Shown: positions 5,160-54,872 of the stretch, one piece after another
How the letters are laid out: every line of letters begins with the position of its first letter
How positions within the stretch are numbered: position 1 is the first letter of the stretch
NCBI GenBank assembly: GCA_965243025.1
Contig: CBDETY010000003.1
Location: 416,001-480,000 of the forward strand
Origin: Candidatus Latescibacterota bacterium
GTDB taxonomy: Bacteria; Latescibacterota; UBA2968; UBA8231
Direction: 5' to 3'
DNA: 64,000 bases
Made by a program: the position numbers and the translations under genes
The notes under the pieces: model-generated
What the model was told of the DNA's origin: nothing
Databases searched by the model: none
What the model saw: the letters and a program-made list of their open reading frames with translations, nothing else

Positions 5160-5340
5160 GGATGCGGTCCGGCGGGCAGGGACCTCTTCCAGATTCCCGG
5201 TTCCTCACCGCCGCCTCGGTTCATAAGGGGCCAGGTGCCCGATTTGGGAATTATATACATACCTATGCAAGGGTTTTTAATAATCTTCCCCCGATTTATC
5301 CCTCAGGGTGAAGTAGATTTACTGAGGTCGGGCGGGCGAC

Positions 5341-5561
5341 GCGACGAGAGGCAACTGAGCCTGGTCGTCGACCGCGGCCGGGGCTTCGAGCCCTCTCCGG
5401 ATGAAGCCCGGCAAGGCTTGGGTTTCTGCCTGTTCAGCATCGGGGAGTGCCTGAGTCAGTCAGGCGGCTCCTTCGAAATCGAATCGGAGCCGGAACAGGG
5501 GACGCGTTGCGTGCTGGCGGTCCCTTCCTCATCTCTGGAGCCAAAGGAAAACTCCCGATGA
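5341..5561 (+). pseudogene. C-terminal (HATPase) remnant of the PAS histidine kinase
   Basis: RRDERQLSL...SSSLEPKENSR closely matches the 3' end of the kinase at 49286-50380; PAS and HisKA parts are missing. Confidence 0.85.
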
Positions 5562-6184
5562 CGACCCGGGTGATGCTGGTGGACGATCACGAACTGATGC
5601 GCGACGGCCTGCGAGCCCTGTTCCAGGACGACGAGTTCGAGGTAGTGGGCGAAGCCGGGGCCGCCCGCACCGCGGTGGAGCTGGCCGCGGCCTGCCGGCC
5701 GCACGTCGTAGTTATGGACGTTTCCCTGCCCGACCTGAGCGGAGTCGAAGCGACGCGTCAAGTCCTCGTCCGGGCTCCGGAGGTGAAGGTGGTGGCCCTG
5801 TCGGTGCACGCCGACCCGCAGTACGTCGCCGGCATGCTGGAGGCCGGAGCCTCGGGGTATGTGCTGAAAGAGGGGGCCGCGGTCGAGCTGCTGCACGCGG
5901 TGCGGGCGGCCCTGGCCGGGCACTCCTACCTGAGCCCGGAACTGGGTGCGGCGGTGTTCGACCAAGTGCAGGCTCTTGCCGGATATCCGGAGCTGAGAGA
6001 GCGGGAACGCGAGGTCCTGCGGCTCATCAGCGAGGGCCTGACGACCCGCCAAATTGCCGAACAGATGAACCTGAGCGAGCACACCGTCCATACGCATCGG
6101 CAGCACATCATGGACAAGCTCGACCGGCACAGCGTGGCCGCTTTGACCAAGTACGCGGTCACCACAGGGCTTACCACGCTGTAG
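5558..6184 (+). CDS. NarL/LuxR family response regulator
   Basis: LVDDH, VMDVSLP, GASGYVLK, C-terminal LuxR HTH; paralog of 50377-51006. Confidence 0.92.
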   Translation: MTTRVMLVDDHELMRDGLRALFQDDEFEVVGEAGAARTAVELAAACRPHVVVMDVSLPDLSGVEATRQVLVRAPEVKVVALSVHADPQYVAGMLEAGASGYVLKEGAAVELLHAVRAALAGHSYLSPELGAAVFDQVQALAGYPELREREREVLRLISEGLTTRQIAEQMNLSEHTVHTHRQHIMDKLDRHSVAALTKYAVTTGLTTL

Positions 6185-6319
6185 TCTCAAAAGCGGCAGT
6201 CTCCCCCGGGTCTGGGCCCTGATTCCGGACTTGGGGGTGGTGCCGGCTCTTCCGGGGACTTGGGATTGCAGGTGCTCTGACTGAGCACCCCTCTGGTGCG
6301 TTCCAGACGCGGACATTTA

Positions 6320-6359
6320 CGGGAGGAGGACTCTTCCCCTGAAAGGAGTCCTCCTCCCG
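6320..6359. promoter_or_regulatory. Strong GC-rich hairpin upstream of the first WGRIK-tail gene
   Basis: CGGGAGGAGGACTC ... GAGTCCTCCTCCCG 14-bp inverted repeat; function unknown. Confidence 0.5.
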
Positions 6360-6465
6360 CCCTTGCTTCTTGGAAGAGAAGACCATCTGGCCCGTTCAGG
6401 AATTCGGTAGGAGTAGAGGTATTATTTTTCCGGCTCAATTTCGGGCAGAACAAGAGGAAAAACAG

Positions 6466-7461
6466 ATGCCCCTTCTTCGCATCAGGAATCAGTTGAGCAT
6501 TTCCCTCGGCCTTCTCACCGGGTCCGCACTGTCGGCCGAAGCCCATGTCGGCAGTCTAGTCGTCCCGTTCGCCGAGGTGACCGACGAGATGCTGTCGGTG
6601 ATCCAGCTCGACGGCTCGGTGGACGAGTGGTCCGATCTGATCGGCGAACCTGCCATGACCCTGCTTGATTTCCAACCTGAAGGGAAGGAAGGAGGCTCAG
6701 TCGATCCGTCCGATATCGACTTCCAGATCTGGTTGGCCTGGCACGATGAGCCCGCTCGCCTCTATGTAGCCTTTGTTGCTGCCGATGACCGTTACTGGAA
6801 TACCCATACCTACGACGTGGATTGGATAACCTCTGATGATGACAACATGATGCGCACTTGGGAAGGTGGTAACGACGGTATTGTCCTTGGAGTCGACGGA
6901 GACCACAGCGGCGGTCCCGGGCTTGAAGGATCATTCCAGTTTGAAGAACTCCTCGAGAGTAGTGGGGAGACTCAGCTATATCATGCCATTTCCCGTACTT
7001 CCAGTGGACCGATCCTGGATGACCCGAGGTCCAGGCACCGGAGTAAGGTTTTCTCCTGGATGACCCTGCCGCCCTACGCGGAGGCCGGCGGCTTGGTCGC
7101 CGGAGAAACACCGGTCATCTTTTCAATCGAGCTGTACATCACGCCGTTCGACCACAGGGGTGAGGAATTGACCAGCCCCGAGGGAAGTGTGACAAGCGAT
7201 CTGAGGGCGGGAAAAATCATCGGCTTCGCTATTGGCGTATATGATGCGGACCTGCCTGCTGCCCAGGATGAAGATCCTCTTGCGAATTATGTGCCGGAAT
7301 CCCAGGTGGATCCCCATCGTCGAGTTTTCGAGGACATATATCGTTTTGCGGCCGATTACTTTATCGATGGGCTGCTGCTGCCGGCCAACCCGGCCGAACC
7401 GGTAGAAGACAGCGCCGTCCAGTCCGTTTCCTGGGGCCGCATCAAGGCATCGCTGTGGTAG
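6466..7461 (+). CDS. Secreted CBM9/DOMON-like protein with C-terminal SWGRIKASL tail (paralog 1)
   Basis: Signal peptide ending AEA|H; LDGSVDEW, IWLAWHD...LYVA, DGDHSGG, ELYITPFD, IIGFAIGVYDAD; tail SAVQSVSWGRIKASLW. Confidence 0.75.
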   Translation: MPLLRIRNQLSISLGLLTGSALSAEAHVGSLVVPFAEVTDEMLSVIQLDGSVDEWSDLIGEPAMTLLDFQPEGKEGGSVDPSDIDFQIWLAWHDEPARLYVAFVAADDRYWNTHTYDVDWITSDDDNMMRTWEGGNDGIVLGVDGDHSGGPGLEGSFQFEELLESSGETQLYHAISRTSSGPILDDPRSRHRSKVFSWMTLPPYAEAGGLVAGETPVIFSIELYITPFDHRGEELTSPEGSVTSDLRAGKIIGFAIGVYDADLPAAQDEDPLANYVPESQVDPHRRVFEDIYRFAADYFIDGLLLPANPAEPVEDSAVQSVSWGRIKASLW

Positions 7462-7547
7462 TGACCCTCTTCGTCCTTCTGCTCCTGCTCGCTCACGCCA
7501 ATGCGCACGATCTGGACGGGAGCCCCGGATTCGCGGCGGACGAATGA
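7455..7547 (+). pseudogene. Stub of TolB-like partner gene (signal peptide only)
   Basis: MVVTLFVLLLLLAHANAHDLDGS matches 43677-43746 at DNA level; homology stops at 7523. Confidence 0.75.
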
Positions 7548-7548
7548 C

Positions 7549-40569: not shown

Positions 40570-40826
40570 CGTATCCTCGTAATGACCCAGGTGTTGCCGC
40601 CCGTCGAGTTGCAGCCGGCGGCTGTCCGAAAAAGCTCGAAGCTCGATTCCGCGTCGCGGCAAACCGCAGTTGGCGTCCCCGACAATGTAAGGATGTTCTA
40701 ATCGCCGATCATGCCCCCCTGTCGGGAAGCGACGCGCCTCGCCGGCCCCCCGGTTGCTTCCGCTGAGCCATCGAAGCGATCTTACCCCCGCCGACACCGC
40801 CCAAAACAGGGTCGCAAATCTACACA

Positions 40827-41940
40827 CGGGACACGACACTGATGAGCGGACTGAAGCGACAGCAGAACAAGGGGAGGGGTCGGCTGAATGCGGAGGAGTA
40901 CCGCGAGCTGTTCGAGGAGTGCCACGAGGCCATGGCGATCATCGCCCGCGACGGGACCATCCTCGACGCCAACCACGCCGCCAGCGAGCTGTTCGACTGG
41001 CCCCATGCCGAGTTCCTCGGCCTGAACATCCTCTCCGTCTACGCAAATCCCGAAGACCGCGCCCGCTACCAGGAGCAGGTCGAGCGCGACGGGTACGTCC
41101 GCGACTTCGAGGTCGTCTTCGTCACCCGCGGCGGGCGCCGGCTCGACTGCCTGCTGACCACCGTGGTGCGGCGCGCCGCCGACGGCCGCGTCATCGGGTA
41201 CCAGGGCCTGGTCCGCGACGACACCGAGCGCCGGCGCATGGACAGGGAACTGCGGGAATACCACGAACAGGTTCGCGCGATGGCTGCCGGGTTCGTCGCC
41301 ATCGAGGACCGCGAGCGGCGGCGCATCGCCGTCGACCTGCACGACCGCGTCGGCCAGACCCTGGCCGCGTCGCAGATGAAGATCGATGTGCTGCGGCGGG
41401 CGGACGGGGAGGCGCGCCAGGCCCTGCTCGAGGACCTGCACGGCCTGCTCGACCGGACGAAAAGAGAGCTGCGCACGCTGGTTTTCGAGCTCAGTCCGCC
41501 GGTGCTGCACGACTTCGGGCTGGTGGCCGGCCTGCACTCGCTCGCCGGGCACCTCGAGAAGGAGCACGGGCTGCGGGTCAGCCTGGAAAGCGAGGGGGAC
41601 TGCGAGGTGGTGGACGAGGGTCTGCGCGCTACGCTGTTCCGCTGCCTTCGCGAGCTGTTGCTCAACGTCGCCCGGCACGCCGGCACGGACGCGGCGGTGG
41701 TGTCCCTGCGCCGCGACGAGAGGCAACTGAGCCTGGCGGTCGCCGACCGCGGCCGGGGCTTCGAGCCCTCTCCGGATGGAGCCCGGCAGGGCTTGGGTTT
41801 CGGCCTGTTCAGCATCGGCGAATGCCTGAGTCAGGCCGGCGGTACCTTCGCCATCGAATCGGCCCCGGGGCAGGGGACGCGCTGCGTGCTGGCGGTCCCT
41901 TCCTCATCCCTGGGGTAAAAGGAGAACTCCCGATGACGAC
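40827..41940 (+). repeat. Segmental duplication, copy 1 (copy 2 at 49271-50384)
   Basis: Near-identical DNA from CGGGACACGACAC to the regulator start; roughly a dozen differences by eye. Confidence 0.9.
40842..41918 (+). CDS. Cytoplasmic PAS + HisKA_3 histidine kinase (copy 1)
   Basis: PAS domain, ERRRIAVDLHDRVGQ H-box, ELLLNVARHA, DRGRGF, GFGLFSI; no TM helix. Confidence 0.92.
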   Translation: MSGLKRQQNKGRGRLNAEEYRELFEECHEAMAIIARDGTILDANHAASELFDWPHAEFLGLNILSVYANPEDRARYQEQVERDGYVRDFEVVFVTRGGRRLDCLLTTVVRRAADGRVIGYQGLVRDDTERRRMDRELREYHEQVRAMAAGFVAIEDRERRRIAVDLHDRVGQTLAASQMKIDVLRRADGEARQALLEDLHGLLDRTKRELRTLVFELSPPVLHDFGLVAGLHSLAGHLEKEHGLRVSLESEGDCEVVDEGLRATLFRCLRELLLNVARHAGTDAAVVSLRRDERQLSLAVADRGRGFEPSPDGARQGLGFGLFSIGECLSQAGGTFAIESAPGQGTRCVLAVPSSSLG

Positions 41941-41991
41941 CGCGTGGCCTTGACCAGGTACGCGGTCAGCACCGGGCTCACCACCCCGTAG
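41933..41991 (+). pseudogene. Response regulator collapsed to 59 bp
   Basis: ATGACGAC start joined directly to the 3' end (ALTRYAVSTGLTTP*) of the NarL gene. Confidence 0.8.
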
Positions 41992-42104
41992 CTGCCCTCT
42001 TCGGGGCGGTCACTCCTTCCGCTTTCGGCTCCCGACTCCATAAGCCCCCCGGGAGCCCGCGGCGCCGGACTTTTTCCGGGCCAATCCCCCGTTTTTCGGA
42101 AATG

Positions 42105-42215
42105 TCACCCGATCGGGTGACAGAAAAATCACCCGATCGGGTGACAGAAAAATCACCCGATCGGGTGACAGAAAAATCACCTGATCAGGTGACAAAAAAT
42201 CACCTGATCAGGTGA
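42105..42215. repeat. Array of 5 palindromic 16-bp boxes
   Basis: TCACCCGATCGGGTGA x3 (42105, 42129, 42153) and TCACCTGATCAGGTGA x2 (42177, 42200); periods 24,24,24,23. Confidence 0.95.
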
Positions 42216-42405
42216 TGCGGGAGCCGTCCGTCCGGTGCGATCTTTAAATCCAGGACGAACGATAGGTCGAACAACGGTTTCCAAGAACAGAGGTTGGATC
42301 CTCGTGGCTGTTATCAACAAAAGGAAGCATTTATCGCTGGCGGCGCGACTTTCTCCCGGTAGTCGTTCCAGCCATTCCGAATCCAACCGGGGCGCAAGGA
42401 GGCAC

Positions 42406-42648
42406 ATGATGCCACGCTTTGTGAAGCACCTCGCAGCGGCAGTCCTGCTGGCTGGTGGAGTCCTTCTGGCTGGCACGACGTTCACGTCCTTCGTGGACGC
42501 TCATGGCAAGCCGGGCTCGTACACGGAGTGGAGCCATGGACACACGAACAGTTCGGCAAGCGCGTGCGCCTACAGCTGCTCGCAGTTGGGGCATAACGAC
42601 TCGAGTTTCGATTGCCCTAACTGCTCATGCAAGGATTCGGAGTGGTAG
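42406..42648 (+). CDS. Small secreted Cys-rich (defensin-like) peptide
   Basis: SD AAGGAGG, signal peptide ending VDA|H, CAYSC...G...C..CSC. Confidence 0.65.
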   Translation: MMPRFVKHLAAAVLLAGGVLLAGTTFTSFVDAHGKPGSYTEWSHGHTNSSASACAYSCSQLGHNDSSFDCPNCSCKDSEW

Positions 42649-42747
42649 TAAACTCTGGACCTTCTGCGTGGGGTAGAAAAAAAGCGTTGAGGTGGATGAA
42701 GTTCCTTAAGGGCTTCATCCATCTGTTTTTGGAAAGGAACCAAAAAA

Positions 42748-43683
42748 ATGAAACACCTGATCGTACTGCTCATATGGACCGCCGCAGCCGCAGCTCACAG
42801 CGGGGATCGTCTGTATCCCATCTATGAGCTTACGGATGAAATGCTGGCAACGATTGACTTGCATGATGGGCTGATTGACGAATGGTACGACATAGGGGAG
42901 CCCAGTATGTCGCTACTGGATTTTCAGACTTTGTTCAATGCGATCCCTGCTGATCCGTCCAACCTGGATTTTCGCATTTGGCTGGCTTGGCATGACGAGT
43001 CGAATCGCATTTATGCGGCTTTCATCATCATTGACGATGTATACAACAACGCACATAACCATACGGAGGACAACCTGAATTCGGCCATGCTTCAGTTTGA
43101 CAGTGTACTCTTCAACCTCGATGCAGATCACAGTGGAGGTGTTGGAGAACGGAGAGGGGTAGATCATACCGAGGAAGAGTTGATAGGTATTTTTGGCAGT
43201 ACGCAGCGCTATACCGTTATAGCTCGAACTGTAATCGGTCCTGCGTTGGACAACCAAATAAGAGTGGGCAACTCCCCAACCTTGTCTGACCGCGGACTAC
43301 CCAACTCATGGAAGGTTCATCCTCCCTATGGAGATGCGGGAGGAACCGCAGCTGGAGAAAATCCTACCGTCAGCGTAATCGAGATGTATGTCACACCATA
43401 TGACTGGTGGGGGGCGTGGGATGACGTAGACCAAACCGAATTCAGTGAACTGTCTGCGCACCAGGTAATAGGTTTTGCCATCATGATTAACGATATTGAC
43501 GAAAGAAAGCGCGGAATGGGTCCTTTTTGGCTTCCAGTAGATATATTCGCTGAACGCATAGATGATGGTGATCTTCTGAATAACATGGCTGATGGCTTTC
43601 TGGATGGGGTGCTGTTGCCCGCTCAGGAGACGACCGCCGTCGAGTCCGTTTCCTGGGGCCGCATCAAGGCCTCGCTGTGGTAG
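42748..43683 (+). CDS. Secreted CBM9/DOMON-like WGRIK-tail protein (paralog 2)
   Basis: AAA|HSGDRLYP, DGLIDEW, IWLAWHD, DADHSGG, EMYVTPYD, TAVESVSWGRIKASLW. Confidence 0.78.
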   Translation: MKHLIVLLIWTAAAAAHSGDRLYPIYELTDEMLATIDLHDGLIDEWYDIGEPSMSLLDFQTLFNAIPADPSNLDFRIWLAWHDESNRIYAAFIIIDDVYNNAHNHTEDNLNSAMLQFDSVLFNLDADHSGGVGERRGVDHTEEELIGIFGSTQRYTVIARTVIGPALDNQIRVGNSPTLSDRGLPNSWKVHPPYGDAGGTAAGENPTVSVIEMYVTPYDWWGAWDDVDQTEFSELSAHQVIGFAIMINDIDERKRGMGPFWLPVDIFAERIDDGDLLNNMADGFLDGVLLPAQETTAVESVSWGRIKASLW

Positions 43684-44538
43684 TGACCCTCTTCGTCCTT
43701 CTGCTTCCTGCTCGCTTACGCCAATGCGCACGATCTGGACGGGAGCGTATACTGCTCCCGGGACGGCGAGGCCCGCCGGCTGTCCGGTTTCGGGGCGGTC
43801 GCCCCGGTATGGTCGCCGGACGGCGAAATGATCTGTTACTTCCAGCACACCCATGATGAAAACCTGTTCCATTTCATATCGCCTGCCGGAGAGCTGCTGC
43901 AGACCGTACCCCTTCCTGCGCCGCTGACCGTCGCGGCAGACCTGACCTGGCATCCCGACGGCGAGGTCACCTTCGCCGCAAGCCAGGGAGAGTCCTATGA
44001 CATCTACAAACTGACCCCCGAAGGACAGGCCGAGCTCATCGTGTCGGATGGGATTCAGCCTGCCTGGTCGCCGGATGGCCTGTCCCTGGCCTTCACTACG
44101 TACCGGGACAGCAACCTGGAGATCTACCTTGCGGACCATGAGGGGCGCCTGCGGAATCTGAGCCTTCACCCGAGCCCCGATGCCCGTTCTTCCTGGGCGC
44201 CGGACGGAACCCGCATCGCCTTCGAAAGCAACCGTTTCGGCAATCCGGATATTTTCGTAGTGGAGGTGGCCAGCGGGGACATAACCCGTCTGACCAATCA
44301 CCCGGGCAAGGATTGGAATCCGGTCTGGTCTCCGGACGGCCGCAAGATCGCCTTCGTTTCCTCACGGTACGAGGACAACCGGATCTACATCATGAACGCG
44401 GATGGAACCGATGTCAGAAGGTTTTCCCAAGGACATGCGGGCGATTGGCAACTGGCCTGGTCCCCTGACGGGAAATGTCTCTGCTTCGTCTCCAGCCGAC
44501 CGGAACCGTTCTTCGACTGGCTCATCCGATTGTTCTGA
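43677..44538 (+). pseudogene. TolB-like (PD40) beta-propeller, +1 frameshift in the signal-peptide coding region
   Basis: Repeated P.WSPDG..iAF.S motifs; CTGCTTCCTG here vs CTGCTCCTG in the 7455 copy disconnects the GTG start; ORF from 43828 remains open. Confidence 0.75.
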
Positions 44539-44605
44539 ATTGAAGGAACGGATGCGACGGACGGGGCGGCGGCTCTGGCCGGTCGCACCTACTTGAGTCT
44601 GGAGC

Positions 44606-44668
44606 TCCCCTGATCAATGGACAAAAAAATCACCCGATCGGGTGACAAGAAATCACCTGATCAGGTGA
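44606..44668. repeat. Array of 2 perfect + 1 degenerate palindromic boxes
   Basis: TCCCCTGATCAATGGA (44606), TCACCCGATCGGGTGA (44630), TCACCTGATCAGGTGA (44653). Confidence 0.9.
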
Positions 44669-45042
44669 TACCGGAGCCGTCTGTCCTGTGCGATCTTTCA
44701 ATCAGGACAAACGAAAGACAAAGATGGCATGGTTTCGCAGAAATGAGGCAGGGCGGCAGAAAGGAGAAACCGCGACGCGCGCACGTTGCTGCCCCATGCA
44801 CCCAGGAAGACGAATTTGAAATCGGCCTTACGCGGAAGGTTGTCTCGCTCCTTATTGTAGTACGACTGTGGAAATTCCTTTCCTGGCAACTCTATGGGAG
44901 AAAGGCCGATGGAAGAGATAGAACCGGGTGGTGGCAGAAGGACTCAGACGTTTACATAATCACAGATCATGAATGGAGACAGAACCAAATGGCTTTGAAG
45001 AAAACTCCACAGTAGAAATCCCTAACCGAAGGAAGGCACACC

Positions 45043-45972
45043 ATGATCTCCGTCCGATGCAACGCTGCATGGCTCACCGCCTTTTGTCTCTGTCTGCCGG
45101 CACTGGCTTTGGCGCACGTGGGCGACCGTATTTATCCCATTTCTTATCTCAGCGACGATATGCTGGAACAGATCGATCTCAAGGATGGTTTGGTGGATGA
45201 ATGGTACGAGGTGGTCGGAGAGCCGTCTATGACCTTGCTGGACTTTGGCGAGGTAGATCAGGGATCACCCGATCCTTCCGACTTGGATTTCCGCATCTGG
45301 CTGGCCTGGCACGATGACCCGGCCCGGTTCTACGTAGCCTTCGTGGGCAGCGACGATATTTATAAAAACGACCATGATTACAACGTCGACGAATTCTCTG
45401 TACAGGACCATATGGATCAGAATGACGGTATCAGCCTGGTGATCGATGGAGATCACGGCGGCGGTGCGGGTTGTGAAAAAAGTGGCTGCACGATGGAAGC
45501 GGCAGTCGAGACCCGTGAAAGAAGCCAGAGATACGACGCCATTGCCCATACCCCTGACGGCCCGAAACTGGATGATTCTTACACCAGATTTTCGACAGGA
45601 GGGTTGGCCTGGAATGCCTTGCCACCCTACGCCGATTCCGGCGGCAGCGTGGTCGGAGAAAACCCGACAATCAGCGTGATCGAACTCTATGTCACTCCGT
45701 TCGATTATTGGGCGTATGATGACATCGAAGGGAGCATGGTAAGCGATCTGACCGCAGGACAGGTCATCGGCTTCGGTATCACGGTGAATGAATTCGATCC
45801 GCCTGATATCAACTGGGGGGTCCCTTGGGTCGAAGGAACGCAACCTGCTGATCATTTTTGGGATATGCTTCTGCTGAAAGCCGACGGTTATCTCGACGGG
45901 CTGCTGTTGTCCGCTGGAGACACTGCGGTCGAGGCGGTTTCCTGGGGACGGATCAAAGCCTCGCTGCGGTAG
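45043..45972 (+). CDS. Secreted CBM9/DOMON-like WGRIK-tail protein (paralog 3)
   Basis: ALA|HVGDRIYP, DGLVDEW, IWLAWHD, DGDHGGG, TAVEAVSWGRIKASLR. Confidence 0.78.
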   Translation: MISVRCNAAWLTAFCLCLPALALAHVGDRIYPISYLSDDMLEQIDLKDGLVDEWYEVVGEPSMTLLDFGEVDQGSPDPSDLDFRIWLAWHDDPARFYVAFVGSDDIYKNDHDYNVDEFSVQDHMDQNDGISLVIDGDHGGGAGCEKSGCTMEAAVETRERSQRYDAIAHTPDGPKLDDSYTRFSTGGLAWNALPPYADSGGSVVGENPTISVIELYVTPFDYWAYDDIEGSMVSDLTAGQVIGFGITVNEFDPPDINWGVPWVEGTQPADHFWDMLLLKADGYLDGLLLSAGDTAVEAVSWGRIKASLR

Positions 45973-46027
45973 TAGTGACCATTCTCGTCCTTCTGCTCGT
46001 CACTCTATCACGTAGCGTGACCGTACC

Positions 46028-46405
46028 ATGGCTATCCGGGTTGCTGCAGACGACCATGAAATGCTGCGGGATAATGTCAGGGAGTTCCTTGCCGGGCAGG
46101 ACGGCATTGAAGTGGTCGGAGAGGCGGTCGATGGAGAATCCGCTCTGGACCAGGCGGGCATGCTGCAACCGGACGTCGTCGTCATGGACATCAGGGCATT
46201 CCGGGCGGCGGCGGGGTAACTGCCACCCGGAAGATTCGCGCCGAACTGCTTGGTGCGGGTGGTGGCCCTTTCCATTCACAGCGAAAGGATCTACCTCCAA
46301 GCGATGCTCGTTGCGGGTGCATCCGGGTAAGTCGTCAAGAATTCGCTCGTTCGCCACCTTGTCCCGCGATCCAAAGCATTGCGGCCGGCAAGCAGTTACT
46401 TCAGC
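46028..46405 (+). pseudogene. Decayed response-regulator receiver gene (paralog of 54352-54783)
   Basis: MAIRVAADDHEMLR...PDVVVMDI, then frameshifts and stops; DNA similarity continues (GTGGTGGCCCTTTCCATTCACAGCGAAAGGATCTAC). Confidence 0.8.
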
Positions 46406-46468
46406 GAATAGGCGGGATGGTCCAGAGACTATCCAGCTTTTGCGAGCTGTTCACAGCAGGAGAATGAC

Positions 46469-47418
46469 ATGCATGTGATCCTTCTTTCAGCCGTGATCGC
46501 CTTGTTCGGCCTGGACCCCGTCCTCGGGCACAGAGGCAACCGGGTTTATCCGTTCTACGAGATAACCGACGAAGCCGCAATCGACTTGACCGATGGAACA
46601 AATAGAAGACTGGGAAGAGTTGTTCGGGGAGCCCTCCCTGACGAGGCTCGATTTCACCGCGTTCGAAGACCAGGCGCGAGTACGAATGGAATACGATCCA
46701 TCCCACCTTGACTTCCAGATCTATCTGGGCTGGAACCGGGTTTCCGACCGCATCTATGTGGGCGCCATCTGCATCGACGACGTGTATGTGGGAGAGGAGG
46801 GATATTCTTCGAATTATCTGGAGCGAGCGGGTGAGGATCATGTCTCTCTACATATCGATGGCGATCACGACGGTTCGACCGCTTGGGAAGACGACTTCGT
46901 TTACGACAGGCAGAGTGACGATTCGGGACTTGTGGATCAAAAGGCACAGCGATACGCCGCTTTACCGCTGCGCCGGGAGACTTCGCACGTCGGCTTGCCC
47001 TTTTTGGAAACGTATTTTGAGGGTGAACCTTGGTGGGGGTACCCTCCCTACGGAGACGGGGGCGGCTCCGTTGTCGGAGAGAACCCCGTGGTCTGGGTCA
47101 CCGAGTTTTACGTCACCCCGTTCGACCGGTTGCTCAGGAAGGAGCCGGAAAACAGTTTGGTCTCGGATCTAGTTGCGGAACAGGTTGTCGGGTTTTACGT
47201 GTACGTTGGCGATTTCGATGAGCCGGGTACCCATGGGCCGGGTAGCAAATTTGCGCGCGAGTATCACGTGATCGGAATCTACGACGTAGTCGATTCGTGA
47301 CCTTCCCGATGAGGGCATGATGGATGGCCTTCTGCTCCCTGCGAACGGCATCGGCCGCGGCGACTCCGCGGTAAAACCCGACTCGTGGGCGCGCATCAAG
47401 GCGAGCTTCTCGCAATAG
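46469..47418 (+). pseudogene. WGRIK-tail paralog 4, two frameshifts (about 46600 and about 47295)
   Basis: VLG|HRGNRVYP...DLTDG / IEDWEELFGEPSLT...DGDHDG...EFYVTPFD / MDGLLLPAN...SAVKPDSWARIKASFSQ. Confidence 0.78.
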
Positions 47419-47574
47419 GAGGACATCATGAATGTCTTAATCTTAATGAAGTTCGCAGCGGTCCCGGTCCTCGGTCGGAACAGGCGCCTTGAAGGGCTGC
47501 CTTGGCGGAGATGCCCTTGCCGGGGCGCTTGGGAATCGGGAGAATCATCGCGGAGTGCACGCCGGATTGAACCT

Positions 47575-48540
47575 TTGAAACGGTTTCTGCTTCCTGTCAC
47601 TTACATCCTGTTTTTGTCGCTCACCCCTGGACCCGTCCTTTCCTGCTCCTGCGAGCCTCCGGGGACCCCCCCGGAAGAGTTGGCGTCAAAGGATGCCGTG
47701 TTCACAGGGCGGGTAGTGGAGATTGTCGAGAAGATCGCAGACATCGAAGACCTGTCGATTCCGTTCGAACGATCTATCGAAGATCTGTCGATTTCGTTCG
47801 AACTATCCGCGGTGTGGAAGGGTGAGCTTCAAAAGGATGTCGCCATCCGGACCGGATTGTGGGACGCTCTCTGCGGCTACCACTTCGAACTGGGTGAGCA
47901 CTATCTCGTGTACGCCTATTCCTCGGGGGATGGGGTCCTGAACGCCGGAATCTGCAGCCGTACGAACGTGCTCGCAGTAGCAGCCGAGGACATGGAGCAG
48001 CTTGGGGAGCCGGTCTCTCGCTGGCATCTGAACGACGATACAGAGGATTTTCTGGCCCTCCCGGAAATCCTGGGGAGGTGGGAGATCGAGTCCGGCATGG
48101 AGAATGGTGCCAGTATTCCGCATTCACCTGCCGGGTGGCGGCTCCTCGAATTCAGGGCGGACGGCGCCTGTGTCGTCAACATGGTTCTACCGAACCTTCT
48201 CGTCATTGCAGAATTCCCGTACGCCAGGGAACGGACCCTCCTGTTCGGGGACGAGAAGTGGCAAAAGGTCGTTCTCAGCCCGATCCAATCCGCTTACGTC
48301 GACCGAGGAAAGGGCTGGGGTGGCGAAACCTTCCAGGTCTGGCCGGAGTTCTTCTTGGCCCTGAGCGGTGATGGCAAACTGGTCGCCATTGTTGAGAACC
48401 TTGGCATACTGTCGGTCCACTCCTTCAGGAGGACGGATCGCCCGATCTATTCAGTCCCTCCCGATGGACAGGTGACCTCTGTTGCCCCCATGACCTGGGG
48501 AGGGGTCAAAAAAGAGAGCCTTCAACCCTCACCAAACTGA
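47575..48540 (+). CDS. Secreted TIMP/NTR-like domain protein with TWGGVK tail
   Basis: TTG start, signal ending VLS|CSC; AVFTGRV, CGYHFELGEHYLVYA, CSRT; tail TSVAPMTWGGVKK (ORF open from 47428). Confidence 0.7.
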   Translation: MKRFLLPVTYILFLSLTPGPVLSCSCEPPGTPPEELASKDAVFTGRVVEIVEKIADIEDLSIPFERSIEDLSISFELSAVWKGELQKDVAIRTGLWDALCGYHFELGEHYLVYAYSSGDGVLNAGICSRTNVLAVAAEDMEQLGEPVSRWHLNDDTEDFLALPEILGRWEIESGMENGASIPHSPAGWRLLEFRADGACVVNMVLPNLLVIAEFPYARERTLLFGDEKWQKVVLSPIQSAYVDRGKGWGGETFQVWPEFFLALSGDGKLVAIVENLGILSVHSFRRTDRPIYSVPPDGQVTSVAPMTWGGVKKESLQPSPN

Positions 48541-48794
48541 ATCCTTCTTCCTCACCCCAGCGACGACGGCTTTGCAGATTCAGGGGGCATTCGCGCATCC
48601 CCCTCCACGATCCGTGCGGAGGCTTTTCCGATTCACGGGGAAAGTTCCCAATTTGGGATAATTCGTCCTGCTCTGAGAGATTTTTTTTCAATCGATCAAC
48701 CCTACCTTGGTGATGCCGACGGACTCCATTTCGACGCTTTCCGTGCCCCACGGCTCGTTGTCCTTCTCGGAGGAAAGGAAGTCGAGGGGAAAAA

Positions 48795-48984
48795 CCGAAT
48801 TGTCCAACCAGGACAATCACCCCGTTACTGGGGTTCGGTCAGCGACCGGGCCGAGTCCAGGACCCCGTTCAGCACCGTGTTGAATTCGAGGCTCTCGTTG
48901 ATGCGCAGACTGGACTGACTCAACCGGGGTCAGGCGCTCCGGGAGGGCCTCGTTGTCCCGTTCCATCTTCTCAGCCGGTTTCAT
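48795..48984 (-). pseudogene. N-terminal relic of a GAF-type sensor kinase
   Basis: SD AAGGAG + MKPAEKMERDNEAL.ERL / LSQSSLRINESLEFNTVLNGVLDSARSLT / GVIVL across two frameshifts. Confidence 0.6.
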
Positions 48985-49285
48985 CCTCTCCTTTTCTTGT
49001 CAGGGGCCTGATTTCAAGCCAAATCTCCCAAAATGCCCATTTCCACCCGGTTTCCACTAAAAAACCACTGAAATGGACCTTGTTTCCACCGGTTCATCAC
49101 TCATGGGCAATTATATTATCGACCCGGTTTATTCGGGTCGCAGCCTGTTTCCTGGGCGGAGTCCCTCAAATCGCACGGCTGCAGAATCCGGGAGGGGTGC
49201 GAACGCGCCAGTTACTACCTCACGGACAACCATAATCCAACAACTCGGCGCAGGATTTCCCAAGTCAACCCGGGACACGACACAG

Positions 49286-50380
49286 ATGAGCGGACTGAAG
49301 CGACAGCAGAACAAGGGGAGGGGTCGGCTGAATGCGGAGGAGTACCGCGAGCTGTTCGAGGAGTGCCACGAGGCCATGGCGATCATCGCCCGCGACGGCA
49401 CCATCCTCGACGCCAACCACGCCGCCAGCGAGCTGTTCGACTGGCCCCATGCCGAGTTCCTCGGCCTGAACATCCTCTCCGTCTACGCAAATCCCGAAGA
49501 CCGGGCCCGCTACCAGGAGCAGATCGAGCGCGACGGGTACGTCCGCGACTTCGAGGTCGTCTTCGTCACCCGCGGCGGGCGCCGGCTCGACTGCCTGCTG
49601 ACCACCGTGGTGCGGCGCGCCGCCGACGGCCGCGTCATCGGGTACCAGGGCCTGGTCCGCGACGACACCGAGCGCAGGCGCATGGACAGGGAACTGCGGG
49701 AATACCACGAACAGGTTCGCGCGATGGCTGCCGGGTTCGTCGCCATCGAGGACCGCGAGCGGCGGCGCATCGCCGTCGACCTGCACGACCGCGTCGGCCA
49801 GACCCTGGCCGCGTCGCAGATGAAGATCGATGTGCTGCGGCGGGCGGACGGGGAGGAGCGCCAGGCCCTGCTCGAGGACCTGCACGGCCTGCTCGACCGG
49901 ACGAAAAGAGAGCTGCGCACGCTGGTCTTCGAGCTCAGTCCTCCGGTGCTGCACGACTTCGGGCTGGTGGCCGGCCTGCACTCGCTCGCCGGGCACCTCG
50001 AGGAGGAGCACGGGCTGCGGGTCAGCCTGGAAAGCGAGGGGGACTGCGAGGTGGCGGACGAGGGTCTGCGCGCTACGTTGTTCCGCTGCCTTCGCGAGCT
50101 GTTGCTCAACGTCGCCCGGCACGCCGGCACGGACGCGGCGGTGGTGTCCCTGCGCCGCGACGAGAGGCAACTGAGCCTGGCGGTCGCCGACCGCGGCCGG
50201 GGCTTCGAGCCCTCTCCGGATGGAGCCCGGCAGGGCTTGGGTTTCGGCCTGTTCAGCATCGGCGAATGCCTGAGTCAGGCCGGCGGTACCTTCGCCATCG
50301 AATCGGCCCCGGGGCAGGGGACGCGCTGCGTGCTGGCGGTCCCTTCCTCATCCCTGGAGCCAAAGGAGAACTCCCGATGA
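49286..50380 (+). CDS. Cytoplasmic PAS + HisKA_3 histidine kinase (copy 2)
   Basis: Near-identical to 40842-41918; ATGA overlap with the regulator. Confidence 0.92.
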   Translation: MSGLKRQQNKGRGRLNAEEYRELFEECHEAMAIIARDGTILDANHAASELFDWPHAEFLGLNILSVYANPEDRARYQEQIERDGYVRDFEVVFVTRGGRRLDCLLTTVVRRAADGRVIGYQGLVRDDTERRRMDRELREYHEQVRAMAAGFVAIEDRERRRIAVDLHDRVGQTLAASQMKIDVLRRADGEERQALLEDLHGLLDRTKRELRTLVFELSPPVLHDFGLVAGLHSLAGHLEEEHGLRVSLESEGDCEVADEGLRATLFRCLRELLLNVARHAGTDAAVVSLRRDERQLSLAVADRGRGFEPSPDGARQGLGFGLFSIGECLSQAGGTFAIESAPGQGTRCVLAVPSSSLEPKENSR

Positions 50381-51006
50381 CGATCCGCGTATTGCTGGTG
50401 GACGATCACGAGCTGATGCGCGAGGGCCTGCGCGCCCTGTTCGCGCAGGACGGGGAGTTCGAGGTGGTGGCCGAAGCCGGGGACGCGCGCACCGCGGTGG
50501 AGCTGGCCGCGGCCTGCCGGCCGCACGTCGTGATCATGGACGTATCTCTGCCCGACCTGAGCGGAGTCGAAGCGACGCGCCAGGTCCTGGGCCGGGCCCC
50601 GGAGGTGAAGGTGGTGGCCCTGTCGGTGCACGACGACCCGCAGTACGTCGCCGGCATGCTGGAGGCGGGGGCCTCGGGGTACGTGGTGAAAGGGGCGGCC
50701 CCGGTCGAGGTGCTGCGGGCGGTCCGGGCGGCCCTGGCCGGCCGCACCTACCTGAGCCCGGAGCTGGCCGGCGCCGTGTACGATCAGGTGCAGGCACTTG
50801 CCGGACATCCGGAGCTGACCCTGCGCGAGCGGGAGGTGGTTCGGCTCATCAGCGATGGGCTGACCACACGGCAAATTGCCAGGCAACTGAACCTGAGCAA
50901 GGACACCGTCCACACGCACCGGAAGCACATCATGGACAAGCTCGACCGGCACAACGTGGCGGCCTTGACCAAGTACGCGGTCAGTACCGGGCTTACCTCG
51001 CTGTAG
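50377..51006 (+). CDS. NarL/LuxR family response regulator
   Basis: LLVDDH, IMDVSLP, LTLREREV...HRKHIMDKL. Confidence 0.93.
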   Translation: MTIRVLLVDDHELMREGLRALFAQDGEFEVVAEAGDARTAVELAAACRPHVVIMDVSLPDLSGVEATRQVLGRAPEVKVVALSVHDDPQYVAGMLEAGASGYVVKGAAPVEVLRAVRAALAGRTYLSPELAGAVYDQVQALAGHPELTLREREVVRLISDGLTTRQIARQLNLSKDTVHTHRKHIMDKLDRHNVAALTKYAVSTGLTSL

Positions 51007-51106
51007 CTCCCGTCAAGACAGTCCGGGCTCCCCGGGGTTTTCCACCCACTCCAAACCCCTCCCAAGCGGGCCAATTTCGGCAAAAAACCGGCTTTTTCCG
51101 GCAAAA

Positions 51107-51145
51107 TACCCTGATCAGGGTATGAAAAATCACCCGATCGGGTGA
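51107..51145. repeat. Array of 2 palindromic boxes
   Basis: TACCCTGATCAGGGTA (51107) and TCACCCGATCGGGTGA (51130); period 23. Confidence 0.9.
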
Positions 51146-51649
51146 TACCGAAGCCGCCATTTCGGTGCGATCTTAGATCCAGGACGAACGAAAGATGGCA
51201 TGGTTTTTCGGAAATGAGCTCAGGGCGGAAGAAAGGAGAGGGAAACCGCGAGGATGCACGTTGCTGCCCCGTGCCCCCAAGGAGAAGGCATCTGGGGATT
51301 GGCAGGGATGACTTGGCGCAAGCAATCGGCAGTATGGATCACCTTTCCTCTGGAAAATCGCAAGCGCTTGGTGCCCCTTAGACAAACCAAATGCCCATTC
51401 CCAAGCAGGACACGGAAGTTCAAGCTGGCACGAATGCGACGGTGAAGGGCATTGCAGTTGCTCGCACTGAAACCCTGAAGGGACCTCAGGCACCAAGGTC
51501 TACCCCCGACAGACGAGTCTCCATGCCCATTTTTTCGTGGAGTGCTCGTCCGTCCAGGGAAGGTGCATTTTTGGGTTGCCCTGCCCTAACTAAGCTTAGG
51601 TTGGCCATGAAGCGGTCCTCCATTTGGTTGACTTGAAGGGAAGATAACC

Positions 51650-52603
51650 ATGGTCCTTATCGGTCGTTCTCTAATGGCTCTGGGCCTCCTTCTCCCGCTG
51701 ACAGTGCCATTCGGTGCCCATGTGGGTGATCGTGTGTACCCGATCGCCTACCTCAGCGACGAGACGCTCGAGGAGATCCGGCTCGACGACGGGTCGGTGG
51801 ACGAGTGGTACGAGCTGGTCGGCGAACCCACCATGACCCTGCTGGATTTCACGGAAGAAAATGAAGGTTCGGCACCTGATCCTGCCGACCTTGACTTCCG
51901 CATCTGGCTGGCCTGGCACGACGAACCAGCCCGGTTATATGTGGCTTATGTGGCCAGCGATGACGTATACAAGAACGGACACGATTACAACGTGGATTGG
52001 GCCACATCCTCACGGGATAATATGTATAAATATGACAGCATCATGCTGGCATTCGACGGAGACCATAGTGGGGGTGCTGGCTGTACTATTTGCCCAGAGG
52101 AGTTAGCGTTGGATCTCTCTGGACAAACTCAGAGATATATGGCCGTTGCCCATAGCAATGGTCCGAACTTGGATGACCCGGCCACTAGGTTCTATACCGA
52201 TTCGTTTGCCTGGACAGTGTTGCCCCCCTATGGGGAGGGGAGCGGCCGCGTTGCAGGAGAAGCTCCCGCGATAAGCGTTATCGAGCTGTGGGTTACCCCA
52301 TTCGACCAGAAAGGTAAGGCGTGGGATAGCGTCGAAGATGTCGTTGTCAGCGATCTGGCTGCCGGTAAAATCGTTGGTTTTACGATTGCAGTGCATGATT
52401 ATGACCCACCTGATAATTCCTGGATGCAGTGGAGTCCCGAAGCCACTTCTGACACAGACTGGGATACCTTCTTTACTATATTGGGCTATAAAGCGGATCG
52501 TTTTTTCGATGGTATTCTGCTGCCCGAATTGGACGAACCGGAAGTCTCTGCGATCTCGTCGGATTCTTGGGGACGAATCAAAGCCTCCTTGGAGATTGAG
52601 TAG
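51650..52603 (+). CDS. Secreted CBM9/DOMON-like WGRIK-tail protein (paralog 5)
   Basis: FGA|HVGDRVYP, DGSVDEW, IWLAWHD, DGDHSGG, SAISSDSWGRIKASLEIE. Confidence 0.78.
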   Translation: MVLIGRSLMALGLLLPLTVPFGAHVGDRVYPIAYLSDETLEEIRLDDGSVDEWYELVGEPTMTLLDFTEENEGSAPDPADLDFRIWLAWHDEPARLYVAYVASDDVYKNGHDYNVDWATSSRDNMYKYDSIMLAFDGDHSGGAGCTICPEELALDLSGQTQRYMAVAHSNGPNLDDPATRFYTDSFAWTVLPPYGEGSGRVAGEAPAISVIELWVTPFDQKGKAWDSVEDVVVSDLAAGKIVGFTIAVHDYDPPDNSWMQWSPEATSDTDWDTFFTILGYKADRFFDGILLPELDEPEVSAISSDSWGRIKASLEIE

Positions 52604-52605
52604 CT

Positions 52606-52848
52606 AAGGTAACCGGTTTTCACGTGGTAATTTACGACTACGACTCAGGGGAGGAAGCCAGGACTGCGTGGACGCCCGGAATGACGTATTCGTCGATGCT
52701 TGACGTATTTCCCGATCTGGACCGCTATATTGGCGGCCTTTTGCTGGTTGCATACGGGATAGTAAAATCAGGCGAAGGAGAAGACAGCGCGATGGAATCC
52801 GTATCTTGGCCGTGGATCAAGCCGCCTTGCAGGAGGAGTAAGGCATGA
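52606..52848 (+). pseudogene. Orphan C-terminal fragment of another WGRIK-tail paralog
   Basis: KVTGFHVVIYDYD...YIGGLLL...EDSAMESVSWPWIK aligns with the last quarter of the family. Confidence 0.7.
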
Positions 52849-53719
52849 GCCCTTCGATCTTGGCCGCCTTCCTGTTGCTTGTACTGTTGTTAGCCGATGG
52901 CCCTCCTGCGACAGCCCATGACCGCGGGGGAAGCGTATTCGTTCTTTCCCAGGACGGGGGTTCTCCCAGGCGCGTTTCGGTGGTGGACAGCACGGACATG
53001 CCCTGCTGGATGCCGGACGGCCGGGGCGTCTTGTACGTTGCCCATACGAGCAGGGTGAACGCCTTCCATCTAGTGTCCACGGCTCGGGTTTTACTCTTGA
53101 ACATTCCCATACGTTCCCCCTTCATTAGCGTGGCCGGAGTATCCGCCAAGCCGGGCGGGGCGGGGCGGAAATAGCCTTCGGTAGTGAAATGGAAACCGGG
53201 AGGTGGGACATTTTCCGCATGGGCATCGCGGCCGCAAACGGGCCGGAGCTAATGGTCCCGGACGGGATCTTTCCCGCTTGGTCCCCCGATGGCCAGCACT
53301 TCGCGTTCACCACGTACCGCACGGGCGACATGGAGCTGTTCCTCGCCGACCAAACGGGGAAAAACTTCCGCAACCTGACCAACCACCCGGCCTATGATGC
53401 CCGGGCAACGTGGTCCCCGGACGGTCGCCGCCTGGCTTTCGAATCGGATCGCTACGGCAACATTGAAATCTGCGCCCTTGAAGTGGAAACCGGGGCCGTG
53501 ACCCGGATGACGAACCACCCCGGTGAAGATCGGGAACCGGCTTGGTCCCGCAACGGAGAAATCGCCTTTGCGTCCAATCGGGAGGGCGTGTTCAGCATCT
53601 ACCGCATGGCGCAGGACGGAACAGCTGTCACCCGATTGACCATGGGCAGCCAAGACCGCCAGCCTGCTTGGGCTCCGACCGGCGACAGTCTGTGTTTCGT
53701 TTCTAGGCCGAATCGATAG
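52845..53719 (+). pseudogene. TolB-like (PD40) beta-propeller split at a GGGGC tandem repeat
   Basis: Signal ATA|HDRGGS in 52845-53174; WSPDG repeats in 53189-53719; removing one GGGGC unit at about 53157-53166 restores the frame. Confidence 0.78.
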
Positions 53720-54122
53720 AAAGTCAGAGTTCGATCTAGTTTAGGTGGTGTCCTGTGGCACGAGGGCAACCAGATTTGGCTCCGGTCCTACCGGCACGGT
53801 CTACGCACCCAGGAGATCAGAACAGGCCCCCTGGAGATCAGGCACTGATCGTCCCCGATTCTCCCATCTCCTCCCCGAAAATAGCAGTGGCTTCCACATT
53901 CTCCAGTGTCAGCCATAGATCACGATTCCGAGTATGGAGATTCCGAGTATGGACCGGTCAAGTTTGCCGATGGGTTGCTTGTCCCTGTTGGTGGACTGGA
54001 AACTGCAGTGGAGTCGGCTTCGTAGAGTCGTATCAAGGAAGAGCGCGGTCGAGTCGGTTTCCTGGGGGCGGAGCCCAGGCCGCCAGACTTTATCCGGGCA
54101 AATCCCCGTTTTTCGGAAAATG

Positions 54123-54209
54123 TCACCCGATCGGGTGACACGAATGTCACCTGATCAGGGGACAGAAAAATCACCTGATCAGGTGACAAAAAATCACCTG
54201 ATCAGGTGA
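54123..54209. repeat. Array of 4 palindromic boxes
   Basis: Boxes at 54123, 54147 (one mismatch), 54171, 54194; periods 24,24,23. Confidence 0.95.
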
Positions 54210-54351
54210 TGCGGGAGCCGTCCGTCCGGTGCGATCTTTAAATCCAGGACAAACGAAAGATGGAATGGTTTCGCAGAAATGAGGAAGGGCGGCAGAAAGG
54301 AGAAGCCGCGACGCGCGCACCCGGGCAACGCGGCGAAGGAGTGACCGTATC

Positions 54352-54783
54352 ATGACCATCAGGGTATTACTGGCAGACGACCACCAAATGCTGCGAGAAG
54401 AGGTCAGGAAGTTTCTTGCCGGGCAGGACGGCATGGAGGTGGTGGGAGAGGCGGTCGACGGGGAATCCGCCCTGGAACAGGCGCGCCGGCTGCATCCCGA
54501 CGTCGTCGTCATGGACATCAGCATGCCGGGCGGCGGCGGCATCAACGCCACCCGGCAGATCGGCGCCGAACTGCCCGAGGTGCGGGTGGTGGCCCTTTCC
54601 ATTCACAGCGAAAGGATCTACGTCCAGGCGATGCTCGGGGCGGGTGCTTCGGGGTACGTCGTAAAGGATTCGATAGCCCGCGATCTGGTCCCGGCGATCG
54701 AAAGCATTGCCGCGGGCAAGCGGTATTTCAGCCCGGAGATCGACGGACTCGACGACATCGAAGGAGGGAGCCGGGCATGCTGA
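54352..54783 (+). CDS. Receiver-only response regulator (NarL-type, no HTH)
   Basis: LLADDH, VMDISMP, GASGYVVK, ends shortly after YFSPEI. Confidence 0.8.
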   Translation: MTIRVLLADDHQMLREEVRKFLAGQDGMEVVGEAVDGESALEQARRLHPDVVVMDISMPGGGGINATRQIGAELPEVRVVALSIHSERIYVQAMLGAGASGYVVKDSIARDLVPAIESIAAGKRYFSPEIDGLDDIEGGSRAC

Positions 54784-54872
54784 GGCGCGGTTTCCCGGGG
54801 GCGGATCAAAGCCTCCCTGGAGTTCGTGGGCAATCCAGTCCTGGGTTGCACGGGCCCCCCCGAGGCGAACCG

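Follow-up and report, generated by a model that had tools for sequence, protein, structure and literature searches.

A duplicated, partly eroded two-component module with tandem operator-like palindromes in front of CBM9-fold paralogs in a Latescibacterota genome

Introduction

What kind of system is a locus in which the same few genes and repeats recur in shuffled order? The question is raised by a 64-kb stretch of DNA from a Candidatus Latescibacterota bacterium (positions 416001-480000 of a 6.78-Mb contig with 65% G+C; hereafter the window, in which position 1 is the first letter). Histidine kinases with a PAS domain, NarL-type response regulators, arrays of 16-bp palindromes and secreted paralogs with a CBM9-like fold occur there several times, in and around a 42-54 kb stretch where the G+C (55-63%) is lower than in the flanks. 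An initial annotation, made from the sequence alone, had read the locus as a regulated, recombination-driven repertoire of exported binding proteins in which each palindrome array acts as a portable expression site. Nearly every item that it had listed among the observed parts was found again here. As to their meaning, we consider it probable that we are dealing with a conventional two-component regulon of the NarL/FixJ type with tandem operators, locally duplicated and eroding, within an expanded family of CBM9-fold proteins.

Palindrome arrays and a promoter-like element

The element that ties the locus together is a 16-bp box, TCACCYGATCRGGTGA, a perfect or near-perfect dyad with a 7-2-7 geometry (TCACCYG-AT-CRGGTGA) that is repeated at a pitch of 23-24 bp with A-rich spacers. 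The window contains four arrays of this box with 5, 2, 2 and 4 copies, just as had been described, and an alignable leader behind W2, W3 and W4:

42105..42215, unstranded: array W1, five 16-bp palindromes spaced 24, 24, 24 and 23 bp
44630..44668, unstranded: array W2, two boxes 23 bp apart
51107..51145, unstranded: array W3, two boxes, the variant TACCCTGATCAGGGTA first and then TCACCCGATCGGGTGA
54123..54209, unstranded: array W4, four boxes, one with a mismatch
42236..42244, plus strand: putative extended -10-like element, TGcGATCTT; also at 44689-44697, 51166-51174 and 54230-54238
44692..44800, plus strand: conserved leader (type A), from alignment; also at 51169-51290 and 54233-54330

Across the genome the box is rare and strongly clustered. 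Allowing one mismatch there are 27 matches (none for a reversed control pattern), 26 of which fall in nine arrays, while a tenth array with diverged boxes lies at C3 2.33 Mb; there are from 2 to 5 boxes per locus. For seven of the ten arrays, a copy or remnant of the regulator gene stops ~100-150 bp before the first box, and within ~1.1 kb downstream of the ten there is a gene or fragment of the paralog family in eight cases, a receiver gene in one and neither in one. In the window, W2 and W4 come after cargo genes or paralog debris, and W4 precedes a receiver-only gene.

The distance between the last box and the hexamer GATCTT is nearly invariant, being 23 nt in eight of the nine arrays for which it was computed, 22 nt in the ninth, and again 23 nt in the diverged tenth array, where it was read off the sequence. 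Six arrays also have a TG two bases upstream of the hexamer. Should GATCTT serve as the -10 element, the centre of the proximal dimer would fall near -42/-43, that is, at the place of a class II activator. The boxes may also follow the regulator. The box TCACCYGATCRGGTGA accompanies the copies whose recognition helix reads ...TVHTHR..., GTACCC(T/G)TTCGGGTGA accompanies the one that reads ...TVNTYR..., and behind distant regulator orthologs, whose helices differ, boxes of this kind are absent. However, this co-variation is weak because it is a single case. That the genes are regulated, as was first proposed, appears likely, given operator-like boxes beside a NarL-type regulator at a fixed distance from a -10-like element.

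Two further features of the arrays deserve mention. The first three box-plus-spacer 24-mers of W1 (42105-42176) are identical, which suggests recent slippage or unequal exchange. Besides, the 23 nt that separate the last box from GATCTT (44669-44691 and its equivalents) contain a dyad of their own, ACCGGA-N8-TCCGGT, of which both arms are altered in W3 (ACCGAA...TTCGGT); another protein might bind there, or the dyad might form a hairpin. A search of 40000-56000 against Rfam gave one sub-threshold match at chance level, on W1 (20 bits against a gathering score of 35).

The core of the leader is repeated at 44720-44784, 51191-51255 and 54256-54320. Three roles for it were considered and rejected. 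As a structured RNA it has 18 predicted pairs with one compensatory change, and the covariation term penalises the fold; as a small open reading frame (ORF) it has indels between copies that are not multiples of three; and the candidate sigma-54 promoter in it (TGGCAT-N5-CGCA) has GG-N9-GC rather than N10, has lost the -12 GC in two copies and is not conserved. Sigma-54 consensus-like sites are in any case not enriched in the window (12 against 20 expected by chance).

The two-component genes and their units

The genes that would act on the boxes are present in all stages from intact to nearly deleted:

40842..41918, plus strand: PAS-HisKA_3-HATPase_c kinase, copy 1 (Pfam, alignment)
49286..50380, plus strand: PAS+HisKA_3+HATPase_c kinase, copy 2 (Pfam, alignment)
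5336..5566, plus strand: 3' kinase stub of a partial module (alignment; weak HATPase_c match)
50377..51006, plus strand: intact NarL-type regulator (REC+GerE; Pfam), recognition helix ...SKDTVHTHRKHIMDKL
5558..6184 (start approximate), plus strand: intact NarL-type regulator (REC+GerE) with no array behind (Pfam, alignment)
41946..41999, plus strand: regulator remnant behind kinase 1, last ~54 nt, remainder deleted (alignment)
54352..54783, plus strand: intact stand-alone receiver (REC only; Pfam), in orthologous position in a congener
46017..46405, plus strand: decayed copy of the receiver-only gene, 83% identical to 54341-54732

The two kinase copies are 98.6% identical over 1123 nt (DNA, 40824-41945 against 49268-50390) and each matches HisKA_3 (PF07730) at E 1e-11; no transmembrane stretch was seen in copy 1 when its sequence was read by eye. 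The stub is 87-89% identical to 50152-50390 and 41708-41941 and opens the partial module at 5336-7523, which has no array. The regulator combines a receiver (PF00072, E 3e-24) with a helix-turn-helix of the LuxR/GerE type (PF00196, E 9e-17), and its best NCBIfam models belong to the NarL family (MctR, UvrY/GacA, NarL; E 1e-54 to 1e-35), all of them below their equivalog cut-offs. In the decayed receiver gene only a 67-residue receiver piece is readable, and its long ORF has no Pfam match. The initial description of two near-identical kinases plus a stub, of intact, collapsed, decayed and receiver-only regulators, and of a further partial module was therefore accurate. Genome-wide, only three kinase copies are intact, the others being stubs, and regulator copies occur at eight places. 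An arrangement of kinase stub, regulator, three boxes and paralog is found twice in inverted orientation and 2.7 Mb apart (C3 3344720-3347520 and 6065640-6068380); the flanks compared for these two loci are identical and their search scores are the same.

The arrangement in the window can be understood from that of a congener, in which the order is kinase, regulator, two boxes, a small Cys-rich ORF, a paralog, a gene with PD40 repeats, paralog debris, three boxes and the receiver-only gene, the first array having the same box pair as W3. Unit B of the window (49286-54783) has this same order. Directly upstream of it lies unit A (40842-46405), with a near-identical kinase, a deleted regulator and a decayed receiver. 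More distant relatives have the kinase and the regulator, sometimes followed by the receiver, with no such boxes or paralog behind.

Putting these parts together, the soluble PAS-HisKA_3 kinase, the REC+LuxR-type regulator and the stand-alone receiver would form a signalling set, and the phosphorylated regulator would bind the tandem 7-2-7 palindromes as dimers. With the promoter-proximal box centred ~42-43 bp upstream of the presumed start, beside the extended -10-like TGnGATCTT, the bound regulator would activate operons for three kinds of exported protein, namely a small peptide rich in Cys and His, CBM9-fold proteins (one or more) and a TolB-like propeller. As for its history, the ancestral unit, still found in the congener, would have undergone tandem duplication followed by decay through deletions and frameshifts, and the regulator-array-leader piece would have been copied to at least five more places before other family members, the cargo being a lineage-specific family of ~100 copies, most of them outside these boxes. 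What the data show directly are the parts with their copies and states, the fold, the constant spacings, the synteny and the size of the family; the binding of the regulator to the boxes, the activation by them, the transcription start and the ligand of the cargo we infer from the sequence.

Some observations weigh against this interpretation. Since unit A lacks its own regulator and neither propeller gene is intact, some of the locus may no longer work. The array X1 (C3 3311353) is an orphan, with no regulator or family gene nearby. The box is conserved only shallowly, its exact form being present in no more than 2 of 41 related genomes. A generic sigma-70 scan gave no site at the arrays, where the promoter is only a consensus-like match. 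Moreover, on the minus strand a box with its A-tract resembles a terminator, namely a short hairpin ahead of a run of T.

The CBM9-fold cargo family

What most arrays have behind them is a member or fragment of a single family of paralogs, of which the window holds the five full-length copies that had been recognised, four intact and one frameshifted, as well as debris:

6370..7461 (likely start 6466), plus strand: CBM9-like paralog of the partial module, with a SWGRIKASLW tail
42748..43683, plus strand: CBM9-like paralog, intact
45043..45972, plus strand: CBM9-like paralog, intact; protein modelled
51650..52603, plus strand: CBM9-like paralog, intact
46469..47415, plus strand: CBM9-like paralog, pseudogene with at least two frameshifts, tail SWARIKASFSQ in another frame
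53755..54080, plus strand: C-terminal paralog debris with two tail remnants

A further small paralog fragment lies at ~52600-52850. Neither Pfam (E<=0.01) nor NCBIfam gave a match for the five window paralog proteins, and among 30 relatives only two matched CBM9_1 (PF06452), with 17-18 bits, under the cut-off of 23.4. A structure model built from 52 sequences (predicted local distance difference test, pLDDT, 78; predicted template modelling score, pTM, 0.80) matches the CBM9 structure 1i82_A with Z 18.8 and a root-mean-square deviation of 2.5 A over 188 of 189 residues (Foldseek E 2e-9), the next matches being 4jpq_B (Z 16.1), EbdC (2ivf_C, Z 10.6) and NxrC (7b04_C, Z 10.4). Along similar lines, in the three nearest ESM Atlas clusters CBM9_1 is annotated in 37%, 13% and 94% of the members, and the commonest phyla of these clusters are Latescibacterota, Gemmatimonadota and Poribacteria. 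According to the model, then, the paralogs have the CBM9 beta-sandwich fold, and the guess of a CBM9/DOMON-like protein was a good one.

The genome-wide search for this family that had been proposed reveals how large it is. A family profile finds 116 ORFs, 85 of them near full length (spanning at least 250 of 321 positions), and there are at least 53-54 copies in each of two congeners, 31 and 13 in two other genera, 0-6 in other genomes of the same bacterial family and none in three sister families. Among 1.84 billion representative proteins, 947 clusters match at E<=0.001. About 11 of the 85 near-full members sit behind arrays. In other words, the cargo family is not special to this locus.

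Variation among paralogs is concentrated in five segments, and the most conserved parts are the two ends, an N-terminal AHVGDRVYP and the tail with its 3' flank (94% identical between 7404-7523 and 43625-43746). The ratio of nonsynonymous to synonymous substitution rates (dN/dS) between close paralogs is 0.22-0.51 over the whole gene (15 pairs; one further pair was saturated). In the variable segments it ranges from 0.28 to 1.14 and only 2 of 13 pairs reach 1, a comparison that is partly circular because the segments were picked by amino-acid entropy. The gene-wide values indicate relaxed constraint and not demonstrated diversifying selection.

As to the habitat, small shares of the stretch are present in public runs labelled as sponge metagenome. 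CBM9-annotated proteins were among the commoner CAZy families in one sponge metaproteome (PMC6081418). In the passages searched of a paper on sponge Latescibacterota, the present protein family is not mentioned.

Partner proteins and a predicted N-terminal histidine

Two other kinds of secreted protein accompany the paralogs, and both recur with them at several loci:

42406..42648, plus strand: small secreted Cys/His-rich peptide with a CAYxC motif and a predicted mature N-terminal His; homolog in the congener
43687..44538, plus strand: TolB-like PD40 propeller gene with frameshifted signal peptide (1-nt indel against the copy at 7455)
52845..53719, plus strand: TolB-like PD40 gene split by a frameshift (ORFs 52845-53174 and 53189-53719)

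Here the initial count has to be corrected: where two long TolB-like genes and two stubs had been listed, there are two genes, both damaged, one by the indel and the other by the split. A metagenomic protein of 833 residues (P0255) joins a domain of the CBM9-like family, a middle region, a PD40 propeller and a C-terminal domain of the type IX secretion system (T9SS), which suggests a functional link between the CBM9-like domain and the propeller. Complex prediction for the paralog at 42796-43680 with the propeller at 43729-44535 gave a score of 0.01, which speaks neither for nor against binding.

The three kinds of protein have a predicted N-terminus in common. Signal-peptide cleavage between Ala and His is predicted for 66 of the 85 family members (Gln follows in 10), for all seven cassette propellers with a readable N-terminus among 11 PD40 ORFs inspected, and for the four small peptides inspected. 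In other exported proteins of the genome such a site is rare: among 28 T9SS substrates a crude signal-peptide rule gives it for 2, and among 27 other tagged proteins for 3. In the window the predicted N-terminal His is at 42478 (peptide), 42796, 45115 and 51719 (paralogs) and 43729 (propeller). Copper proteins of the "histidine-brace" kind typically begin with a His when mature, and the one predicted for the three cassette proteins may point to a metal-binding N-terminus.

A heparinase II/III-like gene (7455-9870) follows the paralog at 6370-7461, its probable GTG start overlapping the stop of the latter. Its signal peptide and first mature residues (AHDLDGS) are those of the PD40 genes, as if it were a fusion to the 5' end of a propeller gene.

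A C-terminal tail on unrelated exported proteins

The paralogs end in a short tail with the aligned consensus (P)T-[AS]-V-x-x-x-[ST]-W-G-x-[IVL]-K plus 3-14 residues, the form in this protein family being (P)TAVExxSWGRIKASL, although many members have WA instead of WG. In the window it is found at 43636-43683, 45925-45972, 52553-52603, 7414-7461 and 48490-48540, the last of these in an otherwise unrelated protein:

47428..48540, plus strand: unrelated 370-residue protein with the same kind of tail, TWGGVKKESL... (domain and tail scans)

The genome has 123 WG-x-[IVL]-K motifs in ORFs of at least 80 residues, and in 100 cases no more than 12 residues separate the motif from the stop. The CBM9-like family does not account for 30 of the tagged ORFs; of these, 21 proteins were scanned and 7 have Pfam domains, among them fasciclin, lamin-tail, PD40, lipocalin-like and Cache. 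Of 151 genomes of the phylum, 82 are positive with the tail profile, and taxonomic families either have the tail throughout or lack it (63/63 in that of the window; 0/30, 0/19, 0/5 and 0/2 in four others), a pattern that suits the finding of a sorting machinery by phylogenetic profiling. No curated model of Pfam or NCBIfam matches the tail (six 40-residue tails were run against NCBIfam at E<=10), and in the literature we found no paper on a WGRIK, SWGRIK or WGxIK tail motif, the one hit being an unrelated virus paper. Since the same tail ends unrelated exported proteins, the initial idea of tail-sorted proteins is plausible, and the tail reads as the signature of a sorting or anchoring tag.

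Spread of the module and alternative explanations

The regulator-array-leader module is 80-95% identical between loci, and the paralogs behind it only 68-71% (DNA). In a tree of the 85 near-full members (FastTree, midpoint root), array-linked paralogs occupy at least six separate places, each beside array-less paralogs. Judged from these sequences, copying or recombination has placed the module ahead of different members of the family, and the mosaic evolution that was first noticed is real. There is a reading in which this would be programmed, with portable arrays and paralogs swapped behind them to vary the cell surface. The contrast in identities and the scatter in the tree agree with it, the conserved ends of the paralogs could be recombination handles, and at W4 the tail debris is fused directly to the pre-array sequence. 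However, a domain scan of 56 window ORFs (27 + 29) found no recombinase or transposase domain, confirming what had been noted from the sequence. Besides, every intact paralog has its own start and signal peptide, so that there are no silent cassettes, the gene order is kept in the congener, dN/dS is not above 1 gene-wide, and public contigs contain no well-supported alternative joint. Fifteen joints in such contigs were considered as evidence of rearrangement and rejected: their sides are at most 57 letters long, most below 35, and fit cross-mapping of paralogs elsewhere. Programmed variation is thus unsupported, as neither a recombinase, nor silent cassettes, nor an alternative arrangement was found, and the marks of cassette-type variation (a site-specific recombinase or invertible segment, or silent promoterless cassettes that feed one expression site) are not seen here. 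We regard such an expression-site system as unlikely. The module seems to have spread through ordinary duplication and homologous recombination, within a family rich in repeats. What survives of the "portable expression site" is that the module sits before unrelated family members, without a dedicated switching mechanism. In the congener the order is fixed and the boxes are linked to these same genes.

The boxes themselves could be read differently, as selfish or structural palindromes, either repeats of the REP (repetitive extragenic palindromic) kind or minus-strand terminators that block antisense transcription. The minus-strand unit does have a 6-7 bp G+C-rich stem, a 4-nt loop and the T-run, and there are 20 terminator-like sites against 12.9 expected, many of which are boxes. 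But there are only ten loci in 6.8 Mb, nine of them tied to the two-component system, the plus strand carries the genes on either side, the -10-like element would have no reason to lie at a strict 22-23 nt from the last box, and there is the single case of co-variation with the recognition helix, all of which makes this quite improbable. Slightly less probable still is an epigenetic switch superimposed on the regulon, with GATC methylation locking promoters on or off and phase variation arising without a recombinase. Promoters locked by methylation are known from pap and agn43, and a GATC does occur at the dyad of every box and within GCGATCTT, the -10-like element; against this, the only Dam-family match is marginal and partial (22.4 bits, model positions 20-61) and GATC shows neither avoidance nor enrichment (observed/expected ratio 0.97). 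Finally, in a region so full of repeats the duplications might be assembly chimeras of paralogous loci, and short-read contigs do break at the arrays, the tails and the kinase copies, which is compatible with variants. We find this hardly credible. The window is part of a 6.78-Mb contig, the same unit exists in the congener, and contigs of two independent studies contain identical pieces over 47393-49165/49314, at the junction of units A and B, and over 50734/50742-51728/51803 (regulator, W3 and paralog); these pieces argue against a chimera.

There is also a more adventurous reading. The tail would be an undescribed sorting or anchoring signal of part of the phylum, with its own machinery, and the module a duplicative promoter cassette that recruits different members of the ~100-copy CBM9-fold family into the regulon of one sensor. 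The three cassette proteins, given their predicted N-terminal His, would not be plain lectins but would together make up an extracellular system for metal-dependent binding or oxidation (e.g., with copper, histidine-brace-like). We hold it to be possible but doubtful, and keep the duplicated and eroding regulon as the probable explanation.

Other features of the stretch

RNA-library contigs (run X20) match 50115-50355, 50541-50699 and 54574-54739 with 0-4 differences; since DNA may be present in such a library, they do not demonstrate transcription. At 34867-36428 there are two PhyH-type dioxygenase genes in tandem (78-95% identity at an offset of 773-779 bp). A ~460-bp repeat at 48700-49222 has ~10 copies in the genome (75-81% identity) and contains repeated GTTTCCAC motifs. 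Kinase copy 2 follows it directly, and copies of the repeat also precede kinase stubs at C3 3.286 and 3.344 Mb. Rather than a miniature inverted-repeat transposable element, the repeat may represent the 5' end of a multi-copy gene together with what lies upstream of it; the encoded proteins, of ~830 residues, are weak matches to the regulator query (E 1e-8 to 1e-13).

Comparison with known systems

Among known proteins, the closest is CBM9 (CBM9-2 of Thermotoga maritima Xyn10A, 1i82) within the DOMON-like superfamily, with which the paralogs have the fold in common. Unlike CBM9, they have ~120 extra residues and no Pfam match above cut-off, they are stand-alone secreted proteins and not modules of glycoside hydrolases, they have a conserved predicted N-terminal His and a C-terminal tag, and there are ~100 copies of them per genome. 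In its fold the model also resembles the heme-b DOMON-like subunits EbdC and NxrC. The locus thus points to a very large unannotated CBM9-fold family.

It also exposes a short C-terminal tag on unrelated exported proteins. Known C-terminal sorting signals comprise the T9SS C-terminal domains, PEP-CTERM with exosortase and LPXTG with sortase, and the tag resembles them in ending many unrelated exported proteins of one lineage. With T9SS there are further points of contact, since the prefix (P)TAVE also stands at the beginning of some T9SS C-terminal domains in this very genome and the metagenomic relative described above has a T9SS domain at the tag position. However, the tag is of ~15 residues with no immunoglobulin-like domain and no curated model; the T9SS domains of that kind (Por_Secre_tail, CHU_C or FlgD_ig) span about 70-100 residues, whereas the paralogs end ~15 residues past the fold with no such C-terminal domain by Pfam, which the neighbouring gene at 54777-56765 does have. 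Exosortase and sortase tags differ in having a transmembrane helix and a basic cluster; here the 3-14 residues after WGxIK are not hydrophobic and neither feature is seen.

For the regulatory part, the system to compare is NarX/NarL. NarL dimers bind two inverted 7-base elements 2 bp apart, and the ogt promoter of Escherichia coli has tandem 7-2-7 sites, one of them centred at -44.5, with TATCTT as -10 (PMC7419079). The window has the same ingredients, i.e., a HisKA_3 kinase, a REC+LuxR-type regulator and tandem 16-bp sites with the proximal one by the -35 region. The regulatory logic is classical, so that the locus opens no new class of system. The kinase here is a soluble PAS protein and not a periplasmic nitrate sensor, and the half-site is TCACCYG, where the NarL consensus is TACYYMT. 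Up to five sites follow each other at a 23-24 bp pitch with A-tract spacers. Within one genome the module has been multiplied, and this offers a clear-cut natural example of how a NarL-type promoter module (regulator, two to five phased operators and leader) is copied before different genes.

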